This document shows positions 1,574-10,355 of a stretch of 64,000 nt of DNA, piece after piece. The number at the start of each line of letters is the position of its first letter. Within the stretch, counting starts at the first letter, position 1. Source of the DNA: a virus. The notes under the pieces were generated by a model. The model made no database searches. It saw nothing but the letters and a program-made list of their open reading frames with translations, and was not told the DNA's origin. A program made the translations under genes and the position numbers. The DNA lies in the UHGV virus genome UHGV-0277313, one strand, 5' to 3'.

Positions 1574-2536
1574 TTAAGATTGCGTTATTTTATTGAAACT
1601 CTTGAAGTATAATTTTAAGAAATGTCTGTACTCAATTCTCTTTTTATACCTATCAGAATACGAATCAGGCTTCATATTATCAGGATCTTCGTCGCCATTT
1701 AATTTAATTATTGTAACTGTTCCATTATAAAATTTTCTTAAGGTTTTGTAATTATTTATAATTTCAGCTCGTGAAACATCCCCGTCGAAACTAAACGAAA
1801 TTTCCGTTGGGTTTTTCGACGCGATAATTCTTGCTTGCGAATCAGCTAATACTTTACCAAAAATAGATACTGCAGTCACATCTTCAGGTGTATTACGGTT
1901 AGCTGCAATACCCGAAAAAACACCTTCAGTAATAATTACTTTACCATTTGTTGATACATTCTGAATATTCCAAACAGCAAATGATTTGTGACTTCCTTGA
2001 GGATTGATATATTTTGCTTCAGGGTTTTCTGATACATAATCACGTGCAACTAAATAAACAACGTTATTATTCAAATCAAACGTCGGAACAATAATCCTTC
2101 CCCGATATCTTCCTTGCCCAATACGGATATCGTATTTTTTAATTTCTTCAAACGTTATATTTCTTGAACGCAGATACTCAACTGCATTAACAAATGAACG
2201 ATCTATTTTTACTGAAATATTGTCCAAATCAATCAATTCAGCTTGAATTAACAGACCACTCGGTGATGTATATTTTATACGCTGTTTAGTATCAATGTTG
2301 TCTAGTTTATATCTTAATAATGCACCACCATTTACATAACCTTGTAATAGCTGATCTACTCTTCCAGACCACCCACATCGATAACAATGAAATACGTTTT
2401 TTTCAAGTGATAAACTTAATTTATAATCATCATAACGTTTACCTAACATTTTACAATTTGGACAATGTGTCACATATTGATCGACATTCGATGTTAAGCT
2501 TACATCTCTCAAACTTTCAACGCGTACATCACACAT
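1574..2536 (-). CDS. 61: DNA primase (T4 gp61-like; zinc-ribbon + TOPRIM)
   Basis: N-terminal zinc-binding motif HCPNCK...(21 aa)...HCYRCGWSG, followed by a TOPRIM-like core (IIVPTFDLNNNVVYLVARDY, ...ITEGVFSG...). Lies immediately downstream of the helicase, as in the T4 41-61 order. Confidence 0.75.
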   Translation of the reverse strand: MCDVRVESLRDVSLTSNVDQYVTHCPNCKMLGKRYDDYKLSLSLEKNVFHCYRCGWSGRVDQLLQGYVNGGALLRYKLDNIDTKQRIKYTSPSGLLIQAELIDLDNISVKIDRSFVNAVEYLRSRNITFEEIKKYDIRIGQGRYRGRIIVPTFDLNNNVVYLVARDYVSENPEAKYINPQGSHKSFAVWNIQNVSTNGKVIITEGVFSGIAANRNTPEDVTAVSIFGKVLADSQARIIASKNPTEISFSFDGDVSRAEIINNYKTLRKFYNGTVTIIKLNGDEDPDNMKPDSYSDRYKKRIEYRHFLKLYFKSFNKITQS

Positions 2537-3411
2537 TATTTAACACCATTAGCAGCTTTTTTCATTTCCTTAACGTCATACGGCTCACATTCTTTCACTT
2601 GATTAGCCGCTTTATCAAAGTTTACATACACAGTTGTATTTGTTTTACCACGACGGGCTTTAGCAACATATAATCTCATTTTACCATTGTCAGACTCTTC
2701 ACGAGTTTGGTTTAATGTAACAATGCCATATGCCACATGCGCTTTTCTTGATGAATCAGCTAACATGTCTTGCGATGCCACTTCATTGTCTTCAGTGTTC
2801 CATGCAGCCTTTCCTAACTGTGAACCTGTAACAACAGGACAATTAAATTGGTCAGCTAACGCCTTCAAGTCATAAAAAATTGTACCCATTTCTTCATATG
2901 TACTTTCAGATGACCGTCGCGTTTGTTTGTTCGGTAACATTAAATCTGCATAGTCTACAATAATTAAACCAGGTTCAAAATTTTCCAAAGAATGTAACTT
3001 CGTCAAATATGTTCTCAAATGATTAGCAGATACTGTTTTATTAGAATAATAAATAGTCCTTACATTAGGTGCCCAATATTTAATTTTCTGCACACGCTGT
3101 TTGTATTTTTCAATTTGTGATTCATCCAATAAATCTCTCATTGACATACCAGTTGAACAGGAAATGATATTTGATAACACTTCCTTTTCAGACCACTCAA
3201 ACGAAAAATACACAACCGGGCGTCTCTGAAACATTGCCTGATATGCCAAAAAGCTCAAGAACTTACTTTTTCCACGACCAGGCGCTCCGCAGTTTTTACT
3301 GTAAAAACAATGACTTAGCTCGAAGTTGTGATACTTATTATTCACCGTCAAATTGTAAACAGGCACCTTTTCATCAAGGTGAATGCGTTTTTTATTTACT
3401 AATTTCATCAA
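2536..3411 (-). CDS. 41: replicative DNA helicase (gp41/DnaB family), C-terminal gene fragment; begins with a 40-aa split-intein C-half then the Walker-A extein
   Basis: Residues 1-40 MMKLVNKKRIHLDEKVPVYNLTVNNKYHNFELSHCFYSKN match the DnaE-type Int-C consensus (VYDIGVERDHNFALKNGFIASN) and end in the terminal Asn. The +1 Cys starts CGAPGRGKSKFLSFLAYQA, a DnaB/gp41-like P-loop, followed by a RecA-like core. Own strong SD AAGGAAG sits 7 nt upstream of the ATG at 3411. Confidence 0.8.
   Translation of the reverse strand: MMKLVNKKRIHLDEKVPVYNLTVNNKYHNFELSHCFYSKNCGAPGRGKSKFLSFLAYQAMFQRRPVVYFSFEWSEKEVLSNIISCSTGMSMRDLLDESQIEKYKQRVQKIKYWAPNVRTIYYSNKTVSANHLRTYLTKLHSLENFEPGLIIVDYADLMLPNKQTRRSSESTYEEMGTIFYDLKALADQFNCPVVTGSQLGKAAWNTEDNEVASQDMLADSSRKAHVAYGIVTLNQTREESDNGKMRLYVAKARRGKTNTTVYVNFDKAANQVKECEPYDVKEMKKAANGVK
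3292..3411 (-). mobile_element. split intein C-fragment (Int-C, 40 aa) of the helicase
   Basis: See CDS 2536..3411. Block F/G-like VYNLTV...YHNFELSHCFYSKN, then the +1 Cys. Confidence 0.7.
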
Positions 3412-3518
3412 TTACTTCCTTACTTAAACCCAACTTCAGAACATAATCCAAATCGTTTTTGTATAAAAACTTCAGTGATGTTATCACAAAATCAGACAGT
3501 TCGTCAACCTTTAATGTT

Positions 3519-4475
3519 TTAAAATTCATCATCTTCCGACAAATCTTCCGCTTTTTTATATGCAACACCTTCTGACCATATAACTTTTTCATCACCTTTT
3601 TTTGGATTTGTAATTCTAAATTTATGATCAGGTGTACATTTAATTGTATACCCATTATCAAAAGTTAATTCGATCAATTCGTCTGTATCTCTAGTTTTCC
3701 ATACATTATAAATATCAGTTTCGAAAGAGTTTCCATTCTCATCAACTGAATAGGCTTTTTTATCTTTAAAGTTGTTTACCAAATCTTTGATTTCGATGAA
3801 ACCTTTATTTGTTTTCACTTTTGTATCACCTGTTAAACAGAATACATACAGTTCACCTTTTGCAATGCCGCCACCAAAAGCGTCATCTAATGAAGGAATG
3901 CCTGTTGTGAACATATTATCTTTGCCATAACTGTCACGTAACATTTGAGGTAATTCATCAAGTGAACTAACCAAATCTAACCCAAGATTTGTTCCTGCAC
4001 CAACAGACAATGCATCATCGATAATAGATACGGCTTTTTCGTAATCATTTGTTTTATCATACATATCGACCAATTTACCAATTGCATCACGCATTGCAAC
4101 GCTTTTAGCAAAATCTAAAGCTTGATCTTTTATGTACTGTGCGTCTTCAATAACAGTTGTTGTTAAGCTACGAATCACTGAAGCAAAATTTTCTTGTTCG
4201 ACAATAGGAATTGCATATTTACTCGTATAATTATTCAATTCAGTCAACAAAACAGATTCAGTCGGTTTTGTATGATACTGTTCGTAATATGAAATAATCC
4301 ACTGACAAATATTTTGCAAATAGACATTATCAAAAAAAGAAGGTTTAATTAATTCCACGCCAACTGTTGATAAATAGGTGAAATCTTGAAATAATAATGC
4401 AACAATCTTTTTCTGCATTTCAACTTCAAAATTATATGTTGTATCCTGTACAACTTCTTCGTTTTCATTGTCCAT
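3519..4475 (-). CDS. 41: replicative DNA helicase (gp41/DnaB family), N-terminal gene fragment (212-aa extein) fused to a 106-aa split-intein N-half
   Basis: Extein ends ...GIPSLDDAFGGGIAKGELYVF (DnaB-like segment preceding the P-loop). Then CLTGDTKVKTNKGFIEIKDLV...AYSVDENGNSFETDIYNVWK...KCTPDHKF (intein blocks A and B, TxxH), very similar to DnaE split-intein N-halves as I recall them. ORF stops after ...EDDEF. No contiguous frame into the C-fragment. Confidence 0.8.
   Translation of the reverse strand: MDNENEEVVQDTTYNFEVEMQKKIVALLFQDFTYLSTVGVELIKPSFFDNVYLQNICQWIISYYEQYHTKPTESVLLTELNNYTSKYAIPIVEQENFASVIRSLTTTVIEDAQYIKDQALDFAKSVAMRDAIGKLVDMYDKTNDYEKAVSIIDDALSVGAGTNLGLDLVSSLDELPQMLRDSYGKDNMFTTGIPSLDDAFGGGIAKGELYVFCLTGDTKVKTNKGFIEIKDLVNNFKDKKAYSVDENGNSFETDIYNVWKTRDTDELIELTFDNGYTIKCTPDHKFRITNPKKGDEKVIWSEGVAYKKAEDLSEDDEF
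3522..3839 (-). mobile_element. split intein N-fragment (Int-N, 106 aa) of the helicase
   Basis: Cys1 of CLTGDTKV lies at residue 213 of the ORF. Block B TPDHKF present. ORF terminates about 106 aa later, typical Int-N size. Confidence 0.7.
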
Positions 4476-4514
4476 AACTTTTTCCTTTTAAAAGAGAACT
4501 ACGGTTACCTTATA

Positions 4515-6479
4515 TCAACCTATTCTCGATTCACCCATTTTTTTAATCAACATTTTAAATTGTTCTTCATTTATTTCTGGAATTCCTTCGTTTTCTAGAT
4601 GTTGTTTCCTTTCTCTAGTCCAAGACTCAAGATATGGATGTCCTTTGTCATTAAAATCTACAAACACTGAACAGTTCAATCCTTTATCTTTTCTTCTGGT
4701 TACGCGGCCGATTCTTTGAACATGTGAAATAATATTTTTTCCAGCATCCATCAAGATACCAACATCAAATTCAGGAACATCAATACCTTCATTAAAAACA
4801 ACGTTTCCAACAATTACACGATATCCTTCTTCACGAATTGCCTTTTTAATTGTTTCAGCATTTCCCTTGCGTTCGACAACAACATGTTGAACAATACCTT
4901 TTTTTGTTTTTTCAGTCGCGTCAATAGCTTCATAAATCGTATTACCACCACACATAAATAAAGCTTTAATTCCTTTATCCTTCATTTCACGTACTATTGC
5001 TTTTCCATGTTCAATACGATTAACCATAACCAAAATTTTTAAATTATTCTTGTAACAAAATTCAATACAACGATATGCTGCTTCATTCCTATTAAAACTT
5101 TCTGCAACATATTTCTTATATACATCTGTGCAAGATTTACAAAACACAAATGATTTTGGTGCATAATTAATATAATATGAATAAACTAAAGACGAATATC
5201 CTTTATCACGAAGATACTTTGATGAAATATAATAAAACGAATTACCAAACAACGCTTTTAAAACAATATCATCAACACATTGCCCACCTTCTTTAAAAGG
5301 CGATGCTGTAAACCCAATTAAATATTCAGGATTCGCAACCATTGCGGGTATTGCAATGCTCTGACAGCTGCCGTGATGACATTCATCAACTATAATAGCT
5401 CTTACACTTTTCAGATATCTCATAATTTTTGGATCGTTACGTTTCACCATATTCCAAACTAAATTATTAGTTGAAACAATAATATCTGAATTATCCAAAA
5501 CAGGGTTTCTGTTAAGATATTCAATTTTACGGTCAATACCACGAAGTTTAGCACGACCTTCAATTTGATTTAAAATATTTGTTCGATTATTAATAACTAA
5601 AATTTTCCCATCAATTAATTTAAACAAAGATGCAATGATTTCAGTTTTACCAGAATTATGTACAATCACACCGTTGCTTAATGCAAAATTATGCAAATCA
5701 CAATCAACCTCAATATCATATACAGGAATAGGGTCTACATAATGTTCAGCAAATACTTGCTCAACAACACGACTCCCATAAACACCAGCTACAGGTGATT
5801 CAGCTAAAAGATTGATAGCTTCTACATATTTTCCATTACTTAAAAGGAAAAGATGATCGGGCGTGCATTCAACTTTAACACCATCATTAAATTTAATCTT
5901 CAATGTATCTTTAACATATTTTGACAAATGTGCCGAAACAATTGAATGAAACTTTCCATCTGAACAAAAAACAGACTTTCCATTAAAATTCATACTTAAT
6001 GAACTTAAAGTTTCAAAACCAGTATTTGTTAAAATTAAAGTATCGCCAACAAAACAACCTGTCGCAGCTTCACAGATACCATGTTTATTAATCAAACATT
6101 TTAAAGTACCAATCAATTGATGTTCACGTACTTCAAAACCAGGTGAAGCTAGTGCCATTTCATTATACGCTTGCCTAACCTTTTGCATTGTTGACTTTAC
6201 ATCAATATCAATTACTTTACGCTGATCGATTACAGTTTCAAAATGAAAATACGGTAAAATCAAATCATCAACACAACCTGATTGTACATATAAAGAAGTT
6301 TTTGTATTTTCAACTTCCATATACAATGTAATCAAACTCTGCCCATCAGCTGACAGTAATGTCAAACGTTTTTTTATACGGTTAATAAAATCAGCATCTT
6401 CATCTGAAATTAAAGACCACATCGATTTCGTAATCGTTAACATTTTATTTCTCTCAATTAGACTGTGTTTGAAAAACAA
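4515..6479 (-). CDS. uvsW: SF2 DExH-box ATP-dependent helicase, UvsW-like, interrupted by an in-frame 134-aa mini-intein in the Walker-A motif
   Basis: Extein junction ...KHGICEAATG|intein|SGKTEIIASL restores AATGSGKTE (helicase motif I). Motif II is VDECHHG. C-terminal QRIGRVTRR resembles the UvsW QTIGRVLRK. Spliced product would be about 520 aa. Confidence 0.65.
   Translation of the reverse strand: MFFKHSLIERNKMLTITKSMWSLISDEDADFINRIKKRLTLLSADGQSLITLYMEVENTKTSLYVQSGCVDDLILPYFHFETVIDQRKVIDIDVKSTMQKVRQAYNEMALASPGFEVREHQLIGTLKCLINKHGICEAATGCFVGDTLILTNTGFETLSSLSMNFNGKSVFCSDGKFHSIVSAHLSKYVKDTLKIKFNDGVKVECTPDHLFLLSNGKYVEAINLLAESPVAGVYGSRVVEQVFAEHYVDPIPVYDIEVDCDLHNFALSNGVIVHNSGKTEIIASLFKLIDGKILVINNRTNILNQIEGRAKLRGIDRKIEYLNRNPVLDNSDIIVSTNNLVWNMVKRNDPKIMRYLKSVRAIIVDECHHGSCQSIAIPAMVANPEYLIGFTASPFKEGGQCVDDIVLKALFGNSFYYISSKYLRDKGYSSLVYSYYINYAPKSFVFCKSCTDVYKKYVAESFNRNEAAYRCIEFCYKNNLKILVMVNRIEHGKAIVREMKDKGIKALFMCGGNTIYEAIDATEKTKKGIVQHVVVERKGNAETIKKAIREEGYRVIVGNVVFNEGIDVPEFDVGILMDAGKNIISHVQRIGRVTRRKDKGLNCSVFVDFNDKGHPYLESWTRERKQHLENEGIPEINEEQFKMLIKKMGESRIG
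5655..6056 (-). mobile_element. mini-intein (134 aa, no homing-endonuclease domain) inside the UvsW-like helicase P-loop
   Basis: CFVGDTLILTNTGFE (block A, Cys1) ... VECTPDHLF (block B) ... VYDIEVDCDLHNFALSNGVIVHN (blocks F/G, terminal HN), then +1 Ser. Same sequence family as the split intein in the gp41-like helicase. Confidence 0.7.
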
Positions 6480-6559
6480 CGTACCACATCTAATGCTATA
6501 TTGTCAATACAAAATGCAATAAATATTATAATTTATACATCATTTTTCAATAAAATAAC

Positions 6560-7873
6560 TCACTTATCTAAACTATTATAAATTTTATATAAATTTACCA
6601 TAGATTTAGATGACTTGAGTCTAAAAACTTCAGAATCAAAAGATTCTAAAGAACGTCTATATTTCACTTTAGATGTTTTTGTTATATCAAACAGTTCTTT
6701 CCAATTCTTATAAACCCAGCTTGATGATTCCTTCCATAGGTTGAACAAACTGGTTTTGTCTATAAGCTCTGGATAGAACTGACCTTTGATATATTTGAAC
6801 ATTGCTCTACGGGCAATTTCCAAACTTGCTGCTATTGGATCTGGTGCTTCATTACATATGTTTCCAATGAATGAAGAATAAACAGGGTTGACTTCGACGA
6901 AGTCTATTTTGTTTAGAAGAAAGTGCTTTCTTAAAGCAGAAACCAGTGCTTCATGTTTCCATTTATTCTTCGTTAATCTATTGAATGATTTACCTTTTCC
7001 TGTATTCCCAGTTTTGAAAGACAAATCTTCAATGCCAAATTTACCAACTTTATAATACTTACATTTCTGGATGATATCTTTAGCTATCTCTTTAAGCTCA
7101 AAGATTTGTTTGTTATTCTGGTGTTTACTTTTAGCATCATTTGAAGATTTGTGTAAGTTCTTTGTGAAATATGACAAATCATACTGCTCTTCAAGCAAAA
7201 TCTTTCTCTTATCACCAGTCCATTTAGAAATAGAAAATCCAATATAGTTTGGATTCATATCTATAGCACCAACTATATTTGGATTTCCAACATAATTGGA
7301 ACAATAGATTTTGGAATCATCAAAGGTTATGCAGATTCTATCCAACTTTAATTCAACACTAAAGTTAGATAACTTCTGCTTACATTGTTCTTCAAGGTTG
7401 ATTAATTCATATAAATAATTCTTATGTAAAATAGGCAATTTCAAGTTGATATGTTTTGATTTAGAAAACTTAAAGATTATCTGGTTATTCGAAATATCCA
7501 ACTGGAATTTACGGTTTCCGCCTTTTGACGTTTCACCTTGTGAATAACCCCCTAAAAGCCTATTTTCTTTGAAAATATCTTTATCTAACTTATGTTTTAA
7601 TCTTTGATAAAAAGAAAATTTGCCACCGAAAATAACCTTTTCTTTATTGGTTAAAAATATGTAATTTGCTTTCTTAATAGCACACTGAATAAACCAAGAA
7701 TCCGAAGGTACATTTGATAAACTTTTAGAAAGTAATCTAATGTCTTTTTCAGATTTGGAATCTTTATATCTGTTGAAAGCATATCTTACCATATTAGACG
7801 ACTTCCGAATTTCATCTTTGATGAAGCTTCGGTCGTCATCTGAACATGTATATGGTAAGTTAATCGTTTTCAA
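6560..7873 (-). CDS. TnpB/OrfB (IS200/IS605-family)-like RuvC-fold nuclease, lacking the usual C-terminal zinc finger (437 aa)
   Basis: RuvC-I GAIDMNPNYIGFSI (Asp), RuvC-II KFGIEDLSFK (Glu), then NRLTKNKW...FVEVNPVYSSFIGNIC, then NEAPDPIAASLEIARRA (RuvC-III Asp). N-terminus is TnpB-like (MKTINLPYT...). No CxxC...CxxC between RuvC-II and RuvC-III. Confidence 0.65.
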   Translation of the reverse strand: MKTINLPYTCSDDDRSFIKDEIRKSSNMVRYAFNRYKDSKSEKDIRLLSKSLSNVPSDSWFIQCAIKKANYIFLTNKEKVIFGGKFSFYQRLKHKLDKDIFKENRLLGGYSQGETSKGGNRKFQLDISNNQIIFKFSKSKHINLKLPILHKNYLYELINLEEQCKQKLSNFSVELKLDRICITFDDSKIYCSNYVGNPNIVGAIDMNPNYIGFSISKWTGDKRKILLEEQYDLSYFTKNLHKSSNDAKSKHQNNKQIFELKEIAKDIIQKCKYYKVGKFGIEDLSFKTGNTGKGKSFNRLTKNKWKHEALVSALRKHFLLNKIDFVEVNPVYSSFIGNICNEAPDPIAASLEIARRAMFKYIKGQFYPELIDKTSLFNLWKESSSWVYKNWKELFDITKTSKVKYRRSLESFDSEVFRLKSSKSMVNLYKIYNSLDK

Positions 7874-8993: not shown

Positions 8994-10355
8994 TTAAAAC
9001 TTATTAACATCTTGCATAAAGAAATTAACGAATCTTAAAGTTTTAGACTGAAAGACTCTTTCATCAAGAGGAAACCTATATTTAAATTTAGATTTCTTTA
9101 ACTCGGAATGAATCTGTTGCCAATTCACAAAACCAACAAAGCACTTTACTTCTTCCAACGAGTGTTTTACTTTGTCTAATAATGATTCTGTTAAATCTGG
9201 AAAGATCACATTCTTCGTTTTGGCTTTAATCTTCTGTATGTATTGAAGATTAAACTCATAGCATCTTCTACTGATTTCAATAGAAGATAACACCATGTCT
9301 GGTAATTCTAAATCTCTATAGACTAGATTACCAATAGTGGATGAATATTGTGGAGATATTTCTATAAACTTAATTCCATAAATATTGCATCTCTTTTTAA
9401 GATTATTGACTAATTTATTTCTACACCAATTATTATTTACAAGTCTATTGAAATTCTTTCCTTGTTTATTATCCTTGGACTTAATAGACAAATCCTCAAC
9501 ACCAAAACATTCGCAATGATAATGTTTTGCTATATCAACAAGAAACTTGGCTACTTTCAATGTTTCATATTGACGTTTATTGTTAAGATATTTTCTTTCC
9601 TTTGATGTTGAAGGTAATTTTAATTTCTTGAGTTTATACTCAATATCATTGATATTCTTTAATGATACTACACCTGAATTTATAGCCTTTAATTCATCAG
9701 ATGATTTCCAGTCTACGACTGACCAACCAACATAATTTGGGTTCATATCGATAGAAAATATTCTGTTTGATATTGGTTTAAATATCTTTTCTGACAATAT
9801 CATTTCATCAAATGAAATATATACAAATTTTTTATCTAATTTGTATGTGATTGGAGTATCTTTCAACTGTTGATGAATATATAATTTTTGTAATACTTTA
9901 ATTCTATTACCAACACCAATAAGTTTTAAGTGTATTCTGTTTTTAATTGTTGGACTAAAGTTGACTGAATAGCAATCTTCAGATAATCTGAAGAATCTAT
10001 TTCCCCTATAGTTTCTATCACCAATTGAACACAAAGATACTAATCTTTTTTCTTTAAATTCTTCATTTGATATGTTGTGTCTAAATCTTTGTTCGAATAG
10101 ACGTTTGCCACCAAATAAAACAGTTTCTTCTTTCTTCAACAAAAATGAAGCATCTTTTACACAAGATTGTCTGAACCATGATTTCATTAAATCAAGATTA
10201 TTGAATTGTAAATGTTTACAAGCAGTTTCAGATACGCCATCTTTTAATCTATTATAAAACAAATGAAGAAGATTATTATATTGCCTCTGATAATCAGCTA
10301 TCAACTGATTATCAGATTCTTTTTCTGCAATATACTTAATCTTCAATGTTATCAT
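8994..10355 (-). CDS. TnpB/OrfB-like RuvC-fold nuclease, second diverged paralog, also lacking a zinc finger (453 aa)
   Basis: IFSIDMNPNYVGWSV (RuvC-I), ECFGVEDLSIKS (RuvC-II), FIEISPQYSSTIGNLVYRDLELPDMVLSSIEISRRC (RuvC-III Asp). N-terminal MITLKIKY... is typical of TnpB. Paralogous to 6560..7873. Confidence 0.65.
   Translation of the reverse strand: MITLKIKYIAEKESDNQLIADYQRQYNNLLHLFYNRLKDGVSETACKHLQFNNLDLMKSWFRQSCVKDASFLLKKEETVLFGGKRLFEQRFRHNISNEEFKEKRLVSLCSIGDRNYRGNRFFRLSEDCYSVNFSPTIKNRIHLKLIGVGNRIKVLQKLYIHQQLKDTPITYKLDKKFVYISFDEMILSEKIFKPISNRIFSIDMNPNYVGWSVVDWKSSDELKAINSGVVSLKNINDIEYKLKKLKLPSTSKERKYLNNKRQYETLKVAKFLVDIAKHYHCECFGVEDLSIKSKDNKQGKNFNRLVNNNWCRNKLVNNLKKRCNIYGIKFIEISPQYSSTIGNLVYRDLELPDMVLSSIEISRRCYEFNLQYIQKIKAKTKNVIFPDLTESLLDKVKHSLEEVKCFVGFVNWQQIHSELKKSKFKYRFPLDERVFQSKTLRFVNFFMQDVNKF

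Follow-up and report, generated by a model that had tools for sequence, protein, structure and literature searches.

Interrupted replication genes of phages that carry split inteins were described by Dassa et al. (2009; PMC2677866), who found "fractured genes" in the Global Ocean Sampling (GOS) metagenomes, where the halves of a phage helicase or of another replication enzyme are each fused to one half of a split intein. The halves are separated by a free-standing gene for a GIY-YIG or Vsr-like endonuclease, and gp41-7 has lost this endonuclease, which is step III of the model proposed in that study (PMC2677866). Contiguous inteins are known from DnaB-family helicases as well: the DnaB-b inteins are located inside the P-loop, and the modelled Dte DnaB, with inteins at sites a and b, has Thr at position +1 (Novikova et al. 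2016, PMC4760082). Here we describe the replicative (DnaB/gp41-like) helicase gene of the virus genome UHGV-0277313, found in a stretch of 64,000 nucleotides that was analysed as a whole and is called the window below. It is very probable that this helicase is encoded by a fractured gene, whose two products are joined by a naturally split class 1 intein. The arrangement as such matches the known fractured genes; new are the locus, an insertion site different from that of gp41-1 to gp41-7, the scar of an endonuclease gene between the halves, and a series of alleles. We found no earlier description of the locus in the literature on LR756497, a genome record that carries it, and on split inteins in huge phages. 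The original prediction, which was made from the sequence alone, set the locus apart as a genomic example from split phage-helicase inteins known mainly from metagenomic fragments. This holds only in part, since the window genome is itself metagenome-derived, and split inteins of cultured phages are known (Aes123, CP21 PolB; PMC12707363).

Four genes follow each other on the minus strand: a superfamily 2 (SF2) helicase gene (4515-6479), a gene coding for 318 amino acids (aa; 3519-4475), a gene coding for 291 or 290 aa (2536-3411 or 2536-3408) and a gene for a DnaG-like primase (1574-2536). The two middle genes encode the N-terminal and C-terminal parts of the helicase (N-extein and C-extein), fused to the N-terminal and C-terminal half of the intein (IntN and IntC), respectively. 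The features are, in the direction of transcription:

3840-4475, minus strand: N-extein, the N-terminal 212 aa of the helicase, ending ...GGGIAKGELYVF, the last beta-strand before the P-loop
3522-3839, minus strand: IntN, 106 aa, with Cys1 (CLTGDTKV), block B TPDH and the acidic C-terminal end EDLSEDDEF; recognized by Pfam, profile and PDB matches
3519-3521, minus strand: TAA stop codon of the N-half gene, kept in all 16 of the 16 short-spacer loci read
3392-3532, minus strand: open reading frame (ORF) of 45/46 aa, MMNFKTLKVDELSDFVITSLKFLYKNDLDYVLKLGLSKEVIDEISK followed by a stop codon, overlapping both flanking genes (scar ORF)
3409-3518, minus strand: spacer of 110 nt, by sequence comparison with relatives the remnant of a homing endonuclease gene
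3500-3518, minus strand: core of a 19-nt repeat, AACATTAAAGGTTGACGAA, in the spacer
3415-3421, minus strand: Shine-Dalgarno sequence AAGGAAG of the IntC gene, a good match, in the spacer
3292-3408, minus strand: IntC, 39 aa, with the basic N-terminal end MKLVNKKRIHL, block F VYNLTVNNKYHNF, block G ...FYSKN and the terminal Asn
2536-3291, minus strand: C-extein, 251 aa and stop codon, with Cys+1, Walker A GAPGRGKS and the RecA-like ATPase domain

The IntN motifs come in the order CLTGDTKV...TPDHKF...AEDLSEDDEF and are followed by TAA. The product of the second gene opens with MKLVNKKRIHLDEKVPVYNLTVNNKYHNFELSHCFYSKN, and continues with CGAPGRGKS and a DnaB_C domain (Pfam, 1.1e-22); IntC itself ends ...VYNLTVNNKYHNFELSHCFYSKN, directly before CGAPGRGKS. 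The intein is thus inserted between residues 212 and 213, one residue upstream of Walker A (F/C-GAPGRGKS), as the original prediction had placed the break, and the 106-aa IntN with its stop codon at the end of the gene 3519-4475 was also found where it had been predicted, with ORF, motifs and TAA in place. The prediction for the second gene and for the spacer had to be corrected in part. The Shine-Dalgarno sequence was confirmed, but the gene most likely starts at ATG 3408 (MKLVNKK...) rather than at TTG 3411, because all database gene calls and all relatives begin with MKLV. IntC is therefore 39 aa (3292-3408) instead of 40 aa long, and the spacer is 110 nt instead of 107 nt. It is true that no frame links the halves through the spacer: the IntN frame contains 3 further stop codons there and the IntC frame 8. 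The spacer is, however, not featureless. The only frame open across it, the third one, is the scar ORF, which shares 11-14 nt with the end of the IntN gene and 17 nt with the start of the IntC gene, and is unable to link the halves.

Both exteins are recognizable as parts of one helicase. The N-extein aligned with the N-terminal part of uninterrupted DnaB-like helicases (query residues 7-211 with that of phage QdP_Psa3), and in tblastn the part of the C-half that begins at query residue 41 matched phage DnaB-like helicases. The best cultured relative was Pseudomonas phage QdP_Psa3 with 39% aa identity; no close cultured relative was found, and megablast of 2400-4600 against phage records gave no match. 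The scan for promoters and terminators gave a weak promoter-like site as the only promoter signal of the spacer, and no terminator on the minus strand between the halves. An explanation by RNA splicing was dropped, as the Rfam scan of 2400-6600 detected no intron or other relevant family; its sole match was a sub-threshold miRNA, a chance match.

The locus shares with the gp41 fractured genes (PMC2677866) the gp41/DnaB-type helicase encoded by two adjacent ORFs that contain IntN and IntC, a split at the endonuclease position, and the free-standing GIY-YIG-type endonuclease gene that separates the halves in related loci but has been lost from one type of allele. A primase gene adjoins, as a DnaG primase gene does in gp41-8. 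As in gp41-7, there is no endonuclease between the halves, the window holding only the 45/46-aa remnant of the gene that is present in the related loci L010, L013, L021 and L031. There are also differences. By the published numbering, the intein of gp41-1 to gp41-7 is at position 356 of P-SSM2 gp41, whereas here it is at 212/213. In sequence the intein is not close to gp41-1 but DnaE-like, and its charge polarity, IntN acidic and IntC basic, is opposite to that of gp41-1 and gp41-8 (PMC2677866). The hairpin upstream of the C-half gene of gp41-7 was not seen in the window, where the spacer showed no RNA structure beyond shuffled controls (z = 0.76). Unlike the gp41 fractured genes, the clade of the window shows both a remnant of the lost endonuclease and a near-isogenic allele bearing it.

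With the DnaE inteins of Npu and Ssp the intein shares Cys1 and Cys+1, an acidic IntN and a basic IntC, the lack of a penultimate His and the position of the split. The half sizes, 102/36 aa in Npu DnaE and 106/39 aa here, are similar. The original prediction was right in seeing a close likeness, but this is resemblance and not membership: the aligned IntN sequences are only about 30-35% identical, and the cyanobacterial host protein is Pol III alpha (dnaE) with its halves encoded at distant loci, whereas here the host protein is a helicase and the halves are 110 nt apart. Similarly to the DnaB-b inteins, the intein interrupts a DnaB-family helicase at its ATP-binding loop; those are, by their published description (PMC4760082), contiguous, and the +1 residue of the window is a Cys before Walker A. 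The helicase of Streptococcus phage vB_SagM-GXN1 (L001, 3962-5749) also has a contiguous intein, four residues further in (SPPG/C...N/TGKT).

Several searches identified the intein. Pfam Intein_splicing matched IntN at 2.3e-8, and a profile built from 35 mini-inteins aligned IntN with its positions 1-95 (2e-30) and IntC with positions 107-145 (9e-10); these are complementary halves of one domain. In the window this profile found 3 matches only: IntN, IntC and a complete intein in the adjoining SF2 helicase. The best solved relatives of IntN alone were DnaE split inteins (7qil, 1e-8; Npu, 4lx3, 1e-6), NrdJ-1 being weaker. When the halves were fused in silico, phmmer matched 7qil at 7e-9 and Npu 4kl5 at 1.7e-7, the latter over query residues 5-146 (chain residues 8-141). 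This alignment with the DnaE intein extends from end to end. It pairs VYNLTV..HNFELSHCFYSKN with VYDIGV..HNFALKNGFIASN of NpuDnaE, and the split position coincides. At E<=1 gp41-1 gave no phmmer match, either with IntN or with the fused halves. A word-indexed protein search with the fused 146-aa intein gave one match only, and an exhaustive HMMER scan of library representatives was used instead; it yielded 1433 representatives at E<=1e-3, many of which were contiguous mini-inteins matching positions 1-146. In an alignment with 34 contiguous mini-inteins, C1, T69, H72 and N145 were invariant, and the junction of the halves fell in a length-variable linker, where large inteins hold their endonuclease domain.

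AlphaFold (AF2) modelling of the fused halves with an alignment of 35 sequences gave a mean predicted local distance difference test (pLDDT) score of 95.6 and a predicted template modelling score (pTM) of 0.88. In a Foldseek search the model matched NpuDnaE (4kl5) first, then the Ssp DnaB and NrdJ-1 inteins, with template modelling (TM) scores of 0.72-0.79. All of the top 50 PDB matches were inteins or intein-like domains, gp41-1 ranking 43. The net charge of IntN is -6, with -6 in its last 25 aa alone, and that of IntC is +4. In DnaE split inteins, too, IntN is acidic and IntC basic. As judged from sequence and model, the putative intein belongs to class 1: Cys1, TPDH, blocks F and G, the terminal Asn, Cys+1 and a predicted horseshoe-shaped HINT fold are all there.

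It must be noted that not every observation speaks for an active split intein. Without the alignment, the single-sequence AF2 model of the fused intein was poor (pLDDT 40) and uninformative. The good model was built from halves that had been fused artificially and aligned with contiguous inteins, thus it demonstrates compatibility with the fold and not the association of separate halves. Block F has Asn where most inteins carry Asp (VYNLTV vs. VYDL), and the penultimate residue of IntC is Lys and not His, although NpuDnaE has Ser there. Block G varies among otherwise near-identical genomes, reading SHCFYSKN, SHCIYSKN or SHCLISCN (3292-3315; L003 and L020 were compared). These non-canonical residues could be taken to mean that the intein halves, acquired from a mobile element, serve as a dimerisation module and hold a two-chain helicase together non-covalently, without splicing. 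There is a precedent in a fragmented phage enzyme, Aeh1 NrdA, whose pieces are reported to be kept together by protein interaction domains (PMC3045599). We consider such an assembly improbable. Down to 52% identity, no intein-bearing allele has lost Cys1, TPDH, the terminal Asn or Cys+1, and even a 36%-identical N-half keeps Cys1 and has TLDH. Moreover, judging by the positions in the DnaB_C profile, an unspliced domain of 145 aa would separate beta-strand 1 of the ATPase from its P-loop.

Relatives with an empty site also bear on splicing. The protein search with the N-half gene returned three groups: split N-halves of 309-318 aa at 99, 88, 76, 71, 53, 52 and 36% identity; uninterrupted helicases of 455-461 aa, which matched only the N-extein, with 69-72% identity over 66% of the query; and a few unrelated intein carriers. 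The uninterrupted helicase P0057 reads GELYVFCGAPGRGKS / ...GGGMAKGELYVFCGAPGRGKSKFLS..., the same as the predicted spliced product GELYVF-CGAPGRGKS, while P0060 and P0065 read ...FVFAGAPGRGKS...; the consensus of the three across the site is GEL[YF]VF[CA]GAPGRGKS. The QdP_Psa3 helicase is also colinear across the junction. Since the uninterrupted relatives match the join, trans-splicing would restore a natural contiguous protein of 212 + 251 = 463 aa. The intein-less relatives are syntenic with the window, with the SF2 helicase, helicase and primase genes, a 264-aa gene and a GerE-like gene. Three intein-less alleles were read, and two of them (P0060 and P0065) have Ala at position +1, whereas every intein-bearing allele read has Cys. 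The helicase itself therefore does not demand Cys at this position, which fits the requirement of splicing and speaks against a merely non-covalent role of the halves.

The split is reproducible. The exact proteins of the window were found on 15-16 contigs of up to 313 kb, and the 90% clusters of the two proteins have 38 and 51 members, all of 318 or 290 aa except fragments. The 16 loci read, from 15 samples, have the same stop codon, the same 110-nt length of spacer and the same start codon throughout; they include NCBI LR756497.1 (309 kb), a JGI contig of 313,762 bp, a contig labelled Hadza and other metagenome assemblies. L003 shows 95% identity to the window in the spacer and IntC, versus 99.8-100% in the flanks, which suggests a patch of local recombination. 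The split persists to 52-53% identity in relatives of which both halves were read; the 36%-identical N-half was seen alone. This latter protein, P0067 (317 aa, on a contig of only 1.6 kb), has an extein ending ...NNLHIIGG before CLVGKTKIK, two residues longer than that of the window. It may represent the same intein lineage two residues deeper in the P-loop, or an insertion in the extein.

The original prediction had named an assembly or sequencing frameshift in a contiguous mini-intein of ~180 aa as a finding that would overturn it. One frame is indeed open through the whole spacer, as such an error might leave it, but two compensating frameshifts would be required, different pipelines arrived independently at the same sequence in at least 15 samples, the open frame represents an endonuclease gene's tail and not an intein linker, and in relatives a whole gene occupies the position of the spacer. 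We regard the probability of such an artefact as negligible.

A helicase pseudogene in decay, with replication served by another helicase, would be conceivable because a second helicase gene, that of the SF2 protein at 4515-6479, adjoins. To compare the constraint on the different parts we calculated ratios of nonsynonymous to synonymous substitution (dN/dS) by the Nei-Gojobori method for the window and L017, a member of the 88% lineage, at dS of 0.7-1.1. The values were 0.08 for the N-extein and 0.02 for the C-extein, 0.06 for IntN and 0.015 for IntC; in more distant pairs the intein halves had 0.08-0.25. Both intein halves are under purifying selection and are constrained as strongly as the helicase, therefore neither a pseudogene nor a decayed intein fits. 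With dN/dS of 0.02-0.08 for exteins and intein halves alike while dS is close to saturation, with start codon, Shine-Dalgarno sequence and stop codon intact in all alleles, and with an SF2 helicase that belongs to a different family and is no substitute for DnaB, decay of the gene is very improbable.

The origin of the spacer can be read from relatives that still have a gene between the halves. This gene encodes 353 aa in L010/L011, 313 aa in L013, and 308 aa in both L021 and L031. The proteins open with a GIY-YIG-like motif, (F/Y)YVYELID...PFY(I/V)G, and share a C-terminal module, YNKSEKGRNES..RA..MR.L, with P0068, a protein that passes the Pfam threshold for GIY-YIG and whose C-terminal module is homologous to theirs (hhalign 98%, 2e-13). 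Their own Pfam matches are weak (GIY-YIG, 0.0025 for L014; LEM-3_GIY-YIG, 0.0011 for L013), a PDB profile search with the endonuclease alignment gave nothing significant, and PHROGs returned no named family. We call them GIY-YIG-like because the profile support for the catalytic domain is weak. In L014/L015, of the 71% lineage, the gene between the halves (L014, 4944-5582; L015, 3172-3810) encodes a 212-aa chimera, in which a GIY-YIG-like N-terminal part is fused to a TnpB/Cas12f-type TNB zinc ribbon (PF07282, 1.7e-17). This looks like a degenerate endonuclease that was disrupted by, or recombined with, a TnpB element.

The last 41 codons of the scar ORF correspond to the 3' tail of the endonuclease gene: 38 of the 41 aa are identical to the C-terminus of the L021 protein, and BLASTP matched the ORF with the C-terminus of the L010 endonuclease at 8e-6. 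Its short 5' part is the overlap with the end of the IntN gene. The scar of L017 and the tail in L031, which also belongs to the 88% lineage, are identical at the DNA level, and comparison of these two loci reveals the boundaries of the missing segment. L031 contains a 19-bp direct repeat, AACATTAAAGATTGACGAA, at 3458-3476, directly after the IntN stop codon, and at 4278-4296, 820 bp downstream within the endonuclease tail. In-silico removal of the segment between the repeats converts L031 into L017 with 25 mismatches in 5137 nt; the tail is free of mismatches, and the repeat has one (position 3468). The two copies in L031 are identical and differ by one base from the scar alleles; the endonuclease-less alleles have a single copy with G at position 11 (3500-3518 in the window), and L021 has no upstream copy. 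The endonuclease-bearing and endonuclease-less alleles therefore differ by a single repeat-bounded event. As a point against our reading, the direction of the 820-bp event is ambiguous: it could be a deletion by recombination between the repeats or a re-insertion that duplicated 19 bp. As judged from these alignments, the spacer is the scar of a GIY-YIG-like homing endonuclease gene. A scan of IMG/VR for the scar junction returned two loci, the JGI contig already known and L025, and the latter was rejected as a chance match within an unrelated gene.

On this basis the working of the locus may be envisaged as follows. The two genes would be co-transcribed, there being no terminator between them and the ORFs overlapping, and translation would yield N-extein-IntN (318 aa) and IntC-C-extein (290 aa). 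IntN with its acidic end and IntC with its basic start would come together as one HINT domain. The predicted steps of trans-splicing are an N-S acyl shift at Cys1, trans-thioesterification to Cys+1, cyclisation of Asn39 of IntC and an S-N shift, and the product would be the 463-aa helicase with a continuous P-loop, ...GELYVF-CGAPGRGKS... Co-transcription and association of the halves are probable, and sequence and model together argue strongly for trans-splicing. As to history, the intein would first have been inserted into the helicase, directly before Walker A. It would then have been split by a free-standing GIY-YIG-like endonuclease gene at the canonical endonuclease position, a state still seen in relatives, and the absence of 820 bp of this gene in the lineage of the window would account for the 110-nt spacer and the in-frame remnant ORF of 45/46 aa.

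It is worth asking whether the scar ORF is kept for a function. Identity between the window and L017 is 96.5% in the spacer, whereas it is 83-86% in the flanking coding DNA. Four DNA haplotypes of the spacer differ by 9 distinct substitutions, and a codon-by-codon reading of their alignment showed 7 of these to be synonymous in the frame of the scar. Intact versions of the ORF encode 7 protein variants. It is possible, though in our judgement rather unlikely, that the scar ORF is maintained and not neutral, and, in a related vein, that the 19-bp repeat permits reversible loss and regain of an endonuclease cassette. A maintained scar ORF may serve stoichiometric translational coupling of the helicase halves, or may encode a small regulatory or DNA-binding peptide; because it overlaps the IntN and IntC genes, translational coupling would be the obvious candidate for what is selected. 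The data would also fit a recent spread of the scar by local recombination, in which scar and IntC were shuffled and intact endonuclease alleles were the source of the variation. The identity of the L017 scar with the L031 tail fits this alternative.

Other genes near the helicase also contain inteins or mobile elements. The SF2 (ResIII/Helicase_C) gene has a contiguous mini-intein of 134 aa in its Walker A motif (5655-6056, minus strand; EAATG/CFVGDT...VIVHN/SGKTE), 26% identical to the split intein of the replicative helicase. In relatives the SF2 gene encodes either 503-510 aa without an intein Pfam match or 641-959 aa with intein matches; from these lengths and Pfam matches it follows that its intein content varies. 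In L032 (420-1959) the SF2 helicase is itself fractured: its N-extein and IntN, the latter 46% identical to IntN of the window helicase, are fused in frame to a GIY-YIG endonuclease in a protein of 468 aa (P0068), and the overlapping next ORF encodes IntC (...VYDLTVDNNLHNFALENGAIVHN) followed by SGKTE... In L023/L024 (1699-2959), which belong to an intein-less DnaB-like lineage, the SF2 helicase is represented by a C-terminal ORF of 255 aa after a 62-aa fragment of DUF559, a domain related to Vsr-type endonucleases, and this suggests another fractured or decayed gene.

Two paralogues of about 440-450 aa in the window (8994-10355 and 6560-7873, both minus strand) are 35% identical and have weak transposase/SSO2105_N matches; judged by eye, their motifs resemble those of a RuvC-type (TnpB-like) nuclease. 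A copy of the 8994-10355 gene with 87% identity is located between the helicase C-half and primase genes in L003 (6081-7442), L005, L007 and L009, and not in the window. From this difference in placement, such genes appear to move within the replication module. In the 52-53% relatives (L010, 688-2487; L013, 1-20 and 711-2510), inteins are present, by Pfam, in topoisomerase IV/gyrase A-like and gyrase B-like genes immediately upstream of the helicases. With inteins in several genes of L010 and L013, the replication module of this phage group can be called intein-rich.

The locus leaves what is known of the working of split inteins unchanged. It does offer a candidate orthogonal trans-splicing pair, DnaE-like, with Cys1 and Cys+1, halves of 106 and 39 aa and intact native exteins, from a widespread gut phage of ~310 kb, together with diverged natural variants for comparison (88%, 76%, 71% and 52% identity). 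A spacer that seemed empty proved to be the scar of an endonuclease gene, with L031 as its near-isogenic partner allele. One syntenic locus presents an allelic series of intein-less genes, split inteins with an endonuclease, a degenerate or chimeric endonuclease, and the scar, and the near-isogenic pair that differs by a single 820-bp event provides material for models of split-intein origin and of the homing cycle. If the endonuclease gene does behave as a reversible cassette, this clade would show the full homing cycle, from the empty site through the intein with its endonuclease and the degenerate endonuclease to the scar.

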